From assembly GCF_003334255.1 (NCBI RefSeq), contig NZ_QOWU01000072.1: a DNA stretch of 19,162 nt; one strand, written 5' to 3'. This DNA is from Escherichia coli (GTDB taxonomy: Bacteria > Pseudomonadota > Gammaproteobacteria > Enterobacterales > Enterobacteriaceae). A program made the position numbers and the translations under genes. Shown here piece after piece: positions 13,721 through 17,063 of this stretch; position 1 is the stretch's first letter, and every line of letters begins with the position of its first letter. The notes under the pieces are model-generated. The model made no database searches. It had not been told where the DNA came from and saw only the letters and a list, made by a program, of their open reading frames with translations.

Positions 13721-14494
13721 ATGGCTCGTAAATGGTTGAACTTGTTTGCCGGGGCGGCACTCTCTTTCGCTGTTGCTGGCAATGCACTGGCAGATGAAGG
13801 GAAAATCACGGTGTTCGCCGCCGCATCACTGACTAACGCAATGCAGGACATTGCTACGCAGTTTAAAAAAGAGAAAGGCGTGGATGTGGTTTCTTCTTTC
13901 GCTTCGTCATCTACTCTCGCCCGTCAGATTGAAGCGGGTGCGCCTGCGGATCTGTTTATTTCTGCCGATCAGAAATGGATGGATTATGCGGTTGATAAAA
14001 AAGCGATCGATACAGCTACGCGTCAGACACTGCTCGGCAATAGCCTGGTCGTTGTAGCACCGAAAGCCAGCGTGCAGAAAGATTTCACCATCGACAGCAA
14101 AACCAACTGGACTTCACTGCTGAATGGCGGTCGCCTGGCGGTTGGCGATCCGGAACATGTTCCCGCTGGCATTTATGCAAAAGAAGCACTGCAAAAACTG
14201 GGCGCATGGGATACGCTCTCTCCGAAACTGGCCCCAGCGGAAGATGTTCGTGGGGCGCTGGCGCTGGTCGAACGTAACGAAGCGCCTCTGGGCATTGTCT
14301 ACGGTTCTGACGCAGTTGCCAGCAAAGGGGTAAAAGTGGTTGCCACCTTCCCGGAAGATTCACATAAAAAAGTGGAATATCCGGTTGCTGTTGTGGAAGG
14401 GCATAACAATGCGACAGTGAAAGCATTTTATGATTATCTGAAGGGACCGCAGGCAGCGGAAATCTTTAAACGTTACGGATTTACAATCAAGTAA
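13721..14494 (+). CDS. modA: Molybdate ABC transporter, periplasmic binding protein
   Basis: 257-aa ORF, MARKWLNLFAGAALSFAVAGNALADEGKITVFAAASLTNAMQDIATQF..., with signal peptide; matches E. coli ModA. Confidence 0.96.
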   Translation: MARKWLNLFAGAALSFAVAGNALADEGKITVFAAASLTNAMQDIATQFKKEKGVDVVSSFASSSTLARQIEAGAPADLFISADQKWMDYAVDKKAIDTATRQTLLGNSLVVVAPKASVQKDFTIDSKTNWTSLLNGGRLAVGDPEHVPAGIYAKEALQKLGAWDTLSPKLAPAEDVRGALALVERNEAPLGIVYGSDAVASKGVKVVATFPEDSHKKVEYPVAVVEGHNNATVKAFYDYLKGPQAAEIFKRYGFTIK

Positions 14495-15183
14495 TGATAC
14501 TGACCGATCCAGAATGGCAGGCAGTTTTATTAAGCCTGAAAGTTTCTTCCCTGGCTGTGCTGTTTAGCCTGCCGTTTGGGATCTTTTTTGCCTGGTTACT
14601 GGTGCGTTGCACGTTTCCGGGCAAAGCTCTGCTCGACAGCGTACTGCATCTACCGCTGGTGTTACCGCCCGTGGTCGTCGGTTACTTATTATTAGTTTCG
14701 ATGGGACGGCGCGGATTTATCGGTGAACGTCTGTATGACTGGTTTGGTATTACCTTCGCCTTTAGCTGGCGCGGCGCGGTTCTCGCTGCCGCCGTCATGT
14801 CGTTTCCGCTGATGGTGCGGGCAATTCGTCTGGCGCTGGAAGGGGTTGATGTCAAACTGGAACAGGCCGCAAGAACACTGGGGGCCGGGCGCTGGCGCGT
14901 TTTCTTTACTATCACGTTACCGCTGACCTTACCGGGAATTATTGTTGGTACGGTACTGGCTTTTGCTCGTTCTCTCGGTGAGTTTGGTGCAACCATCACC
15001 TTTGTGTCGAACATTCCTGGTGAAACGCGAACCATTCCTTCTGCCATGTATACCCTGATCCAGACCCCCGGCGGGGAAAGTGGAGCGGCGAGACTGTGCA
15101 TTATTTCTATTGCGCTGGCGATGATCTCCCTGTTGATTTCAGAATGGCTGGCCAGAATCAGCCGTGAACGGGCGGGGCGCTAA
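14494..15183 (+). CDS. modB: Molybdate ABC transporter, permease
   Basis: 229-aa polytopic membrane [40 protein letters not shown]...; its ATG overlaps the modA TAA by 1 nt. Confidence 0.96.
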
Positions 15184-15185
15184 TC

Positions 15186-16244
15186 ATGCTGGAACTGAAT
15201 TTTTCCCAGACGTTGGGCAACCATTGCCTGACTATTAATGAAACGCTGCCCGCCAATGGCATCACTGCTATCTTTGGCGTCTCCGGTGCCGGAAAAACTT
15301 CGCTGATTAACGCCATCAGTGGACTGACGCGCCCGCAAAAAGGGCGGATTGTCCTCAATGGGCGGGTACTAAATGATGCCGAAAAAGGTATCTGCCTGAC
15401 GCCGGAAAAGCGTCGCGTTGGCTATGTTTTTCAGGATGCGCGGCTGTTCCCGCATTACAAAGTGCGTGGCAATCTGCGCTACGGCATGTCGAAAAGTATG
15501 GTCGATCAGTTCGATAAGCTGGTGGCGCTTTTAGGCATTGAACCGTTGCTTGACCGTTTACCAGGCAGCCTGTCCGGAGGCGAAAAACAGCGCGTGGCGA
15601 TTGGTCGGGCTTTGCTGACAGCACCGGAATTGCTGTTGCTGGATGAACCGCTGGCGTCACTGGATATTCCGCGTAAACGCGAACTGTTGCCTTATCTGCA
15701 ACGGCTGACACGGGAAATCAACATTCCGATGTTGTATGTCAGCCATTCGCTGGATGAGATCCTCCATCTGGCAGACAGAGTGATGGTACTGGAAAACGGT
15801 CAGGTGAAAGCCTTTGGCGCGCTGGAGGAAGTGTGGGGCAGTAGCGTGATGAATCCGTGGCTGCCGAAAGAGCAACAAAGTAGCATTCTGAAAGTGACGG
15901 TGCTTGAGCATCATCCGCATTACGCGATGACCGCGCTGGCGCTGGGCGATCAGCATTTGTGGGTCAATAAGCTGGACGAACCGCTGCAAGCTGCGCTACG
16001 TATCCGCATTCAGGCTTCCGATGTTTCTCTGGTTTTACAACCGCCGCAGCAAACCAGCATTCGTAACGTATTGCGGGCAAAAGTTGTTAATAGTTATGAC
16101 GACAACGGCCAGGTGGAAGTGGAACTGGAAGTCGGCGGTAAAACGCTGTGGGCGCGTATCAGCCCGTGGGCCAGGGATGAACTGGCGATCAAACCTGGCC
16201 TGTGGCTGTACGCGCAAATTAAAAGTGTGTCGATAACCGCCTGA
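15186..16244 (+). CDS. modC: Molybdate ABC transporter, ATPase
   Basis: 352-aa ORF with Walker A GVSGAGKT, signature LSGGEKQR, Walker B LLLLDEP and a C-terminal Mop-like domain; matches E. coli ModC. Confidence 0.96.
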
Positions 16245-17063
16245 TTAAATCAGGTGGCTATAAATGAACTGGGCAATGCTGTCGGTGGTGTTATCACCAA
16301 TCACAATGTTGGCGCGCGCTTTTACCGCGTCATCGGCGTTGCCCATCGCCACGCCTGTACCAGCGGCTTCCAGCATACTGATATCATTAAAGTTATCGCC
16401 GAATGCCACGACGTTTTCCATCGACCAACCTTGCGCCTCAACCCATTTCGTCAAACGTTTACCTTTGCTGTTGCCGCCGCGTGCAATATCAACCTGATCG
16501 TGCCAGGACCATTCACACTCCAGTCCCAGTTCATGTTCGACATGCTTACCAAAATGCTGCAATTGCGGCAGGTCATCGTGCGTCAGGGCGAACTTCCATA
16601 CGGCGTTAACTTGTTGCGCCGTTTCAGCCAGAGAAGCGACTTGTGTGAAAGTCGGACGCTGTTCCGGCGGCAGGGTTTGCGCCCAGTTAGATGTGCGAAT
16701 GACATGCCCGGTCGGGTGCTCATAGACCATTGCATCATCGACATACATCAGACCGTGAATGTGGTGTTCATTCAGCATCTCAATGAGTTGCAGGGCTTTA
16801 ATAACGGGCATTGGGTCCGCTTCCAGCACGGTTTTTGCATGATAATCATACAAATAGGTGCCATTACAGCAAATAGCAGGTGTATCCAGCGCCAGCGCCT
16901 GATAAAAAGGATGAATAGCGACGTGATGGCGACCTGTGACGATGATTAATTGATAGCCTGCTTCGCGAGCGCGGGCCAGGGCTTCTATCGATGAAGGAAG
17001 CAGGGTCTTTTTCGGGGTCAATAAGGTGCCGTCTAAGTCGAGAGCAATCACGCGTGTGGTCAT
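16245..17063 (-). CDS. ybhA: HAD-superfamily sugar-phosphatase (Cof-like), pyridoxal phosphate phosphatase
   Basis: Track ORF 16245..17165 (306 aa). I take the start at the internal Met, MTTRVIALDLDGTLLTPKKTLLP... (272 aa), with the HAD motif I DxDGT; matches E. coli YbhA. Confidence 0.9.
   Translation of the reverse strand: MTTRVIALDLDGTLLTPKKTLLPSSIEALARAREAGYQLIIVTGRHHVAIHPFYQALALDTPAICCNGTYLYDYHAKTVLEADPMPVIKALQLIEMLNEHHIHGLMYVDDAMVYEHPTGHVIRTSNWAQTLPPEQRPTFTQVASLAETAQQVNAVWKFALTHDDLPQLQHFGKHVEHELGLECEWSWHDQVDIARGGNSKGKRLTKWVEAQGWSMENVVAFGDNFNDISMLEAAGTGVAMGNADDAVKARANIVIGDNTTDSIAQFIYSHLI

Follow-up and report, generated by a model that had tools for sequence, protein, structure and literature searches.

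How do two convergent genes end their transcripts when their stop codons touch? This question is raised by modC and ybhA in a 19,162-nucleotide window of Escherichia coli DNA (contig NZ_QOWU01000072.1), by which we mean the whole stretch analyzed; it matches E. coli K-12 MG1655 throughout at 100% identity. The ORF list and RefSeq place three genes on the plus strand: modA, encoding the molybdate-binding periplasmic protein (13721-14494, 257 aa), modB, encoding the permease (14494-15183, 229 aa), and modC, encoding the ATPase with a C-terminal TOBE domain, also recognized by domain match (15186-16244, 352 aa). Their products match SBP_bac_11 (modA), BPD_transp_1 (modB) and ABC_tran plus TOBE (modC), and the genes lie downstream of modE/acrZ, identifying the modABC operon; identical Pfam families in the same order were found in 11 other genera. 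The minus strand carries ybhA (16245-17063), which encodes a HAD-family pyridoxal phosphate/fructose-1,6-bisphosphate phosphatase of 272 aa. Its annotated start is the ATG at 17063; the mechanical ORF list gives instead a longer, TTG-started ORF of 306 aa. The YbhA N-terminus is MT[TAS]RVI in 15 of 16 genera and MTFRVI in Cronobacter.

The original prediction described minimal spacing throughout this region, and re-checking of the reading frames placed all stop codons where it had put them, exact to the base. The modA stop (TAA, 14492-14494) and the modB start (ATG, 14494-14496) have one base in common within TAATG (14492-14496, spacing −1), as seen in the ORF listing, the raw sequence and MG1655 RefSeq. 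The modB stop is separated from the modC start by the predicted two nucleotides, TC (15184-15185). MG1655 RefSeq boundaries agree with the ORF calls, with one base common to modA and modB, modC extending to locus position 5645 and ybhA beginning at 5646.

It is known that −4 and −1 are the commonest spacings of unidirectional genes in E. coli, that 707 of 2,987 pairs fall between −8 and +6, and that translational coupling requires short spacing, +2 being still functional (PMC10666635). Judged from sequence, the −1 and +2 spacings of modABC are of the ordinary, commonest operon junction types; both lie in the range of translationally coupled pairs and would fit such coupling. They are also well kept. 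In all 16 Enterobacteriaceae loci examined the modA/modB spacing is −1 or −4 and the modB/modC spacing is −1, +2 or +3 (16/16 within −1 to +3); among wider proteobacterial loci, modA/modB is tight in 33 of 52 and modB/modC lies within −8 to +6 in 48 of 55. Like the coupled junctions of Huber et al. 2023 (PMC10666635), modABC consists of genes that all point the same way and encode the subunits of a single heteromeric complex, with a TAATG overlap, a +2 junction, spacing kept across genera and a modB without an SD-like match (−3.3 kcal/mol); modA has a good Shine-Dalgarno sequence (anti-SD duplex −7.8 kcal/mol). Unlike in those junctions, a moderate SD-like G-run is present at the modC start, so that independent initiation of modC may also be possible, and for modABC it is from these features that we infer coupling. 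A ribosome ending one cistron could restart on the next by termination-reinitiation, which would link the amounts of three subunits of one complex, modB having no Shine-Dalgarno sequence of its own.

At the convergent end of the operon the two stops adjoin as TGA/TTA (16242-16247). The modC stop TGA occupies 16242-16244 and TTA at 16245-16247 is the reverse complement of the ybhA stop TAA, which confirms the direct adjacency of positions 16244 and 16245 and leaves a spacer of 0 nt. The same 0-nt spacer was found in 15 of 16 Enterobacteriaceae genera; in Cronobacter the genes overlap by 4 nt (TTAA). Spacers of 79-196 nt with hairpins are present in Photorhabdus, Providencia, Acerihabitans and an Enterobacterales MAG. 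In five 50-kb samples of MG1655 (250 kb), the spacer is 0 or less at 5 of 29 convergent CDS junctions and at most 12 nt at 8 of 29, and lplA/yjjJ is another exact 0-nt junction. Overlap is what convergent operons in E. coli usually show (276 of 370; Conway et al. 2014, PMC4161252). The 0-nt junction is ordinary genome compaction and is not remarkable.

Since there is no intergenic DNA at this junction, there is no intergenic terminator, as had been predicted. A consensus promoter/terminator scan likewise detected no hairpin-plus-T-run terminator here; the scan is insensitive, because it found zero promoters in 13300-17400, the known modA promoter region included. A 0-nt spacer also means that any 3′ UTR of either gene lies within the opposite gene. 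The claim that the convergent transcripts must end inside each other's coding regions thus held as far as overlap of the 3′ UTRs is concerned, and published data agree with it; what it missed was a hairpin at the junction itself. The modABC spacing and the modC/ybhA transcript overlap are already known, and the overlap is already catalogued: modC-ybhA is among 165 convergent 'excludons' present in at least 50% of 58 MG1655 transcriptomes (ExcludonFinder 2025, PMC12288877). Published Term-seq data contain one plus-strand 3′ end antisense to ybhA, 769 nt beyond the modC stop (MG1655 798381, window position 17013; PMC7815308 supplementary file 1), where the local hairpin is weak. The MG1655-to-window offset of 781368 was verified on the sequences flanking this end, the acrZ terminator end and a modB-internal end. 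If its promoter of origin lies upstream, the end at 17013 implies that polymerases pass the junction hairpin.

This hairpin is formed by an imperfect palindrome of 29 nt, ATAACCGCCTGATT-A-AATCAGGTGGCTAT (16233-16261), with 14-nt arms that are 86% complementary and a centre base at 16247. An RNA hairpin is predicted from either strand and comprises the final codons of modC (I-T-A-stop) and of ybhA (S-H-L-I-stop). Its folding energy is −14.1 and −14.3 kcal/mol on the two strands (z −4.9 and −5.5), and none of 200 shuffles was as stable. Terminating ribosomes must melt this structure in every round.

The tails that follow the hairpin, UAUAAAUGAA on the plus strand and CGACACACUUUUAAUUU on the minus strand, contain no U-run, and the element is not an intrinsic terminator of the usual kind. 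A canonical bidirectional intrinsic terminator is available for comparison in the same window between pgl and ybhD (18217-18255). Both are palindromic hairpins between convergent genes, but pgl and ybhD are separated by a 40-nt spacer, and the GC stem there, at −21 to −25 kcal/mol, is much stronger than that of the coding modC/ybhA element at about −14 kcal/mol. The modC/ybhA structure resembles the protective 3′ stem-loops of Rho-dependent transcripts (PMC6061677), being a stable stem-loop with no U-run followed by C-rich, G-poor RNA. Plus-strand RNA of putative rut-like composition extends downstream of it over 16300-16550 (GC skew −0.13 to −0.37), and minus-strand RNA produced by ybhA read-through into modC would be similarly C-rich over 16050-16250 (plus-strand GC skew +0.13 to +0.25). 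Unlike those stem-loops, the base of this hairpin has no mapped steady-state 3′ end and no bicyclomycin-sensitive region is listed. In particular, no Rho-termination region is given across 796.8-798.4 kb of MG1655, nor in PMC7815308 supplementary file 2 at 797.4-798.4 kb, for which low coverage is a possible cause. As a U-tract, covariation and a mapped 3′ end are all lacking, the role of the hairpin, whether as pause site, 3′-protective structure or bidirectional terminator element, is inferred.

The explanation that we regard as probable joins these features. With modABC in coupled spacing, the modC-ybhA intergenic spacer would have disappeared in the ancestor from which the core Enterobacteriaceae descend, the longer spacers being retained in more distant Enterobacterales. 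Loss of the spacer would oblige each transcript to enter the opposite gene. As ribosomes are released at the stop codons, the RNA past the stops would be untranslated, antisense and C-rich, so that diffuse ending through Rho, through head-on encounters of polymerases, or through both is most likely. The hairpin made of the last codons of both genes would most likely serve as a two-strand pause site and a barrier to 3′-exonucleases, and most likely not as a self-sufficient intrinsic terminator. Rho-dependent transcripts are known to end just 3′ of stem-loops that lack a U-run and have rut sites downstream of them (Dar and Sorek 2018, PMC6061677), and where hairpins lie between convergent genes they set the site of polymerase collisions (bioRxiv 10.1101/2022.10.23.513370). 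The palindrome may thus place pauses or 3′ ends a few bases beyond each stop and not deep in the opposite gene.

The strongest competitor, though we hold it to be somewhat less likely true than false, is that the hairpin is a by-product without function and that Rho, collisions and decay alone end the transcripts. The C-terminal residues are ITA in ModC and HLL or HLI in YbhA, and the preferred codons ACC GCC and CAC CTG would be complementary by chance; ACC, CTG and CAC are indeed common codons in enterics. The stability data point both ways. The raw stability is merely within the top 1.5% of 39-nt windows (95 of 6375 within the window), as a by-product might be, but the z-scores are low on both strands (−4 to −5) and exceptional against 8 other tight convergent junctions, none of which is lower than −2.1.

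Conservation is similarly divided. The 7-bp core CCGCCUG/CAGGYGG keeps at least 6 of 7 pairs in 12 of the 15 genera with abutting stops, and the hairpin is identical in two divergent E. coli variants. The stem is gone in Yokenella, Trabulsiella and Cronobacter and reduced to 5 of 7 pairs (plus strand) in Superficieibacter; counting the last, it is missing in 4 of 16 genera with gene order unchanged, which favors chance. No two-sided compensatory change was found at any of 24 predicted pairs in 15 genera (covariation term −0.1), and covariation sought in the structured 3′ end of modC was not found either. The element thus lacks the compensatory base changes that define a conserved structured RNA, and retention of the stem could reflect conserved amino acids and preferred codons. 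No Rfam family matched at the junction; the only Rfam matches in the window are two tRNA-Lys genes and two RtT-like hits at its start. Against a by-product stand the stem codons themselves. GCC is invariant in 12 of 12 Ala codons and CAC in 10 of 10 His codons, whereas elsewhere in modC and ybhA these amino acids show mean synonymous diversities of 0.52 and 0.39, and the codons neighboring the stem vary freely. The summed synonymous diversity of the five stem codons, 0.505, was equalled or undercut in 21 of 100,000 amino-acid-matched draws; this test was post hoc and took no account of phylogeny. In three genera (lignolyticus, Pseudescherichia and Pseudocitrobacter) a His-to-Arg change converts a G.U / A.C position into a G-C pair.

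If the stem is indeed selected, it could be a coding-embedded bidirectional 3′-end element that replaced the intergenic terminator upon ancestral spacer loss in Enterobacteriaceae, a reading that we put forward only tentatively. A terminating ribosome covers the hairpin, so that under selection of this kind its folding would require translation to lag behind transcription.

It is likewise rather doubtful that both transcripts mostly end just beyond the hairpin, with about 30 nt of overlap, at a bidirectional terminator of the SEnd-seq class located within coding sequence. The position is suggestive, the hairpin being encoded by both strands exactly between convergent genes, and relatives that have a spacer also carry hairpins at this boundary, in some cases flanked by A/T runs. 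As in the described bidirectional terminators (Ju et al. 2019, via the Wang et al. 2022 preprint; model pair ynaJ-uspE), there is a palindrome giving a two-strand hairpin with no canonical U-tract, and the class is described as unlike intrinsic terminators and not needing Rho (bioRxiv 10.1101/2022.10.23.513370). Unlike elements of the ynaJ-uspE type, the modC/ybhA element lies wholly within two coding sequences, across their stop codons, both genes are weakly expressed, and mapped coincident 3′ ends are lacking. In the curated Term-seq lists, which cover three growth conditions, no 3′ end falls at or near the hairpin on either strand (PMC7815308), and the only plus-strand end lies much farther on; both genes are weakly expressed under those conditions, which could be the reason for the missing ends. 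Neither modC nor ybhA has entries in the SMRT-Cappable-seq or TERMITe supplements. Moreover, modABC is normally repressed by ModE-molybdate. Such repression is at odds with a collision mechanism that is reported to be most effective at highly expressed genes (bioRxiv 10.1101/2022.10.23.513370).

Least probable of the three, in our view quite improbable, is that the zero spacer was selected for mutual antisense control. Induction of modABC by molybdate starvation would then lower ybhA expression, and the reverse would also hold, both by interference between the two transcription units and by cutting of the double-stranded overlap by RNase III. Membership of the core convergent excludons and an arrangement kept in about 15 genera are in its favor. 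Like other excludons, modC-ybhA is a convergent pair with overlapping 3′ transcript ends, named in a published list, but inclusion needs coverage overlap alone, which is automatic with a 0-nt spacer; the typical excludon, unlike this pair, has an intergenic mean of 95 nt in E. coli (PMC4161252, PMC12288877). Our literature search found no data on reciprocal or mutually exclusive expression of the pair or on RNase III processing of this overlap. One lineage tolerates a 1.3-kb insertion between modC and ybhA with ordinary terminators on either side. We know of no functional tie between molybdate uptake and a PLP/sugar phosphatase.

Two further candidates were rejected. A plus-strand ORF of 231 aa antisense to ybhA (16254-16949), which we take to be the historical 'modD' of the 'modABCD' literature, is not a fourth operon gene because its frame is closed in E. 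albertii (at most 77 codons), Salmonella (65) and most other genera; a DNA-level operator found no supporting evidence, the extended palindrome being confined to Escherichia and the GC core alone being common to other genera.

Beyond a tidy annotation the significance of the spacings is small, as they represent textbook compaction. The hairpin is of modest value as a clean and genetically tractable case: both of its arms are coding, and it can be broken and restored by synonymous mutations. It can be used to ask how 3′ ends are set in convergent genes that have no DNA between them, and whether loss of a spacer lets coding sequence absorb terminator-like elements. If the hairpin is a selected element, pausing or termination at this boundary would be sensitive to transcription-translation coupling on both strands.

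Reading of the raw sequence and of an ORF listing placed modA at 13721-14494, modB at 14494-15183 and modC at 15186-16244 on the plus strand, and ybhA at 16245-17063 on the minus strand; the RefSeq annotation agrees with this reading at the boundaries of all four genes. The original prediction of minimal spacing was borne out. The modA stop codon TAA (14492-14494) shares one base with the modB ATG (14494-14496) in the sequence TAATG, modB and modC are separated by two nucleotides, TC (15184-15185), and no base lies between the modC stop TGA (16242-16244) and TTA (16245-16247), which on the opposite strand is the TAA stop of ybhA. 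Re-checking of the reading frames found the stop codons where they had been placed. The modABC-ybhA stretch is 100% identical to that of E. coli K-12 MG1655; of the 5426 complete E. coli genomes, 5392 contain it. The mechanical ORF of ybhA reaches a TTG at 17165 (minus strand, 306 aa, 16245-17165); the N-terminal residues from the annotated ATG at 17063 (272 aa) align in 16 out of 16 genera examined.

Such spacing is not unusual. Among E. coli same-strand pairs, -4 and -1 are the most frequent spacings, 707 of 2,987 pairs fall within -8 to +6, reinitiation is still possible at +2, and subunits of one complex are enriched for short gene overlaps (PMC10666635). Throughout the 16 Enterobacteriaceae genera examined, whose loci came from a genome scan and from ModC homologues, the modA/modB spacing is -1 or -4 and the modB/modC spacing is -1, +2 or +3. 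Among proteobacterial loci more widely, the range -8 to +6 covers 33 of 52 modA/modB and 48 of 55 modB/modC spacings. The Shine-Dalgarno match is good for modA (-7.8 kcal/mol) and moderate for modC (-6.3 kcal/mol), and there is none for modB (-3.3 kcal/mol), which fits translation of at least modB by reinitiation. Together with the spacing and with published experiments on other pairs, this suggests that the modABC spacings most likely serve translational coupling.

At the convergent junction the spacer is 0 nt in 15 of the 16 genera; in Cronobacter sakazakii (L083, 3556-3559) modC and ybhA share 4 nt, a TTAA palindrome from which both stops are read. Enterobacter sp. Bisph1 (L004, 4060-5390) carries a 1331-nt insertion between the genes. 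Within it are several small ORFs, about 100 nt left over from the 3′ end of ybhA, and, next to both modC and ybhA, terminators of the canonical hairpin-plus-T-run type. Spacers of 196 nt in Photorhabdus, 119 nt in Providencia, 114 nt in Acerihabitans and 79 nt in an Enterobacterales MAG all have hairpins, and in Pasteurellaceae and Vibrio ybhA is not at the modC-adjacent position. Loss of the spacer was therefore probably a single event in the ancestor of the Enterobacteriaceae.

Convergent genes without a spacer also occur elsewhere in MG1655. Among 29 CDS-CDS convergent junctions in five 50-kb stretches of its annotation, five have no spacer (yiaV/yiaU, -4; ygeA/lysR, -14; yegW/yegV, -27; pdeR/ymiD, -19; lplA/yjjJ, exactly 0, L096 77/78) and eight have 12 nt or less. 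Overlap of the modC and ybhA transcripts is already published. Convergent operons overlap in 276 of 370 cases, with a mean of 286 nt (Conway et al., PMC4161252), and modC-ybhA is among the 165 convergent pairs for which ExcludonFinder lists overlapping transcripts in 50% or more of 58 MG1655 transcriptomes (PMC12288877). The exact 0-nt junction lplA/yjjJ is likewise named in the published excludon list; its hairpin, GC-rich and located just within yjjJ, does not reach significance when compared with shuffles.

Beyond modC, the Term-seq data of Adams et al. have a single 3′ end on the plus strand, MG1655 798381, classed as antisense to ybhA (PMC7815308, supplementary file 1). The flanking sequence printed in the table places it at 17013 (+), 769 nt beyond the modC stop and within ybhA, 50 nt from the 5′ end of that gene; the sequences printed for an end at the acrZ terminator and for one within modB also fit the offset of 781368. 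All that precedes the 17013 end is a U5 run and a weak hairpin. For MG1655 796.8-798.3 kb the tables of PMC7815308 give no other 3′ end on either strand and no Rho-termination region. The acrZ intrinsic terminator found by our scan (13561-13594, +) coincides with published Term-seq ends at MG1655 794954/794956. The modB-internal end at 14627 (+) (MG1655 795995), which is listed for another growth condition, hints at premature termination within modABC.

Immediately 3′ of modC and antisense to ybhA lies a GTG-started ORF of 231 aa (16254-16949, +), known as 'modD' in older papers on a 'modABCD operon'. E. albertii, Salmonella and most other genera have this frame closed, which makes it a shadow ORF rather than a gene; the 3′ end at 17013 lies 64 nt beyond its stop and still ahead of the pgl promoter region. 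At the start of the window, two Rfam RtT matches (8-175 and 315-440, +) overlap or follow two tRNA-Lys(UUU) genes (1-76 and 209-284, +). RtT usually accompanies the tyrT operon, so both matches look like cross-matches that derive from repeats.

The two stops are straddled by an imperfect inverted repeat (16233-16261), centred on base 16247 between them, with 12 of 14 positions of its arms complementary; the original prediction had overlooked it. It is encoded by the ModC end ATA ACC GCC TGA and the YbhA end AGC CAC CTG ATT TAA. The RNA folds at -14.1 kcal/mol (+) and -14.3 kcal/mol (-), and none of 200 dinucleotide shuffles was equally stable (z -4.9 and -5.5, respectively); at eight other tight convergent junctions of the MG1655 sample z was never below -2.1. 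By raw energy the hairpin ranks only among the top 1.5% of the 39-nt segments of the window (95/6375); what is notable is where it lies and how it scores after correction for composition, not its strength. No U-run directly follows the stem on either strand, and thus it is not a canonical intrinsic terminator. An internal contrast is provided by the pgl/ybhD convergent junction (18213-18254), a classic bidirectional terminator with a 40-nt spacer and a strong palindromic hairpin, CCCGGCGCAG...CTGCGCCGG, of -21 to -25 kcal/mol on both strands; its z is similar, yet it is far more stable. Folded together, the last 125 nt of modC and the junction hairpin (16120-16262, +) reach -64.1 kcal/mol (z -5.5); the inverted repeat GGCCAGGGATGA/TCAAACCTGGCC at 16169-16200 is part of this segment. 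The nucleotide sequence of the segment is strongly conserved over 15 genera, and no compensatory changes were found in it.

The 7-bp hairpin core CCGCCUG/CAGGYGG keeps at least six of seven plus-strand pairs in 12 of the 15 genera with abutting stops; it is lost in Yokenella and Trabulsiella, and Superficieibacter retains five pairs. The GC core is absent from Cronobacter, and only Escherichia has the extra A-U pairs that reduce the loop to 3 nt. In two divergent E. coli variants all differences lie outside the palindrome. In [E.] lignolyticus, Pseudescherichia and Pseudocitrobacter the YbhA His codon (CAC) is replaced by Arg (CGC), turning a G.U or A.C position into a G-C pair on both strands; no two-sided compensatory change was found in the hairpin (covariation term -0.1).

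The stem could also be a mere result of coding, arising from the amino acids and preferred codons; this is a minority possibility, though a substantial one, given that neither mapped 3′ ends at the hairpin nor covariation was found. At synonymous sites the stem codons are GCC in 12/12 Ala, CAC in 10/10 His, and ACC in 13/15 and 7/7 Thr, while neighbouring codons vary freely. Of 100,000 draws from modC and ybhA matched for amino acid, 21 had a summed synonymous diversity as low as that of the five stem codons, 0.505; as the test was post hoc and ignored phylogeny, this unusual invariance is taken as suggestive.

On the plus strand, 16300-16550 has a GC skew of -0.13 to -0.37 and 16050-16250 one of +0.13 to +0.25, so the RNA downstream of each stop is C-rich on both strands, a composition preferred by Rho. 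Rho-dependent transcripts have been found to end just past U-less stem-loops with rut sites downstream (Dar and Sorek, PMC6061677), and hairpins between convergent genes to pause polymerase and position head-on collisions (Wang et al., bioRxiv 10.1101/2022.10.23.513370). The best reading is that ribosomes would exit at the modC and ybhA stops, leaving the RNA beyond untranslated, and that both transcripts would read through into the opposite gene until ended by Rho and/or polymerase collisions, while the hairpin would serve to pause polymerase or to block exonucleases. Overall, the predicted arrangement is accurate and its architecture is ordinary, that of a textbook operon with an already catalogued convergent overlap. 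The stop-straddling hairpin is a small addition to it, at most another case within a known class.
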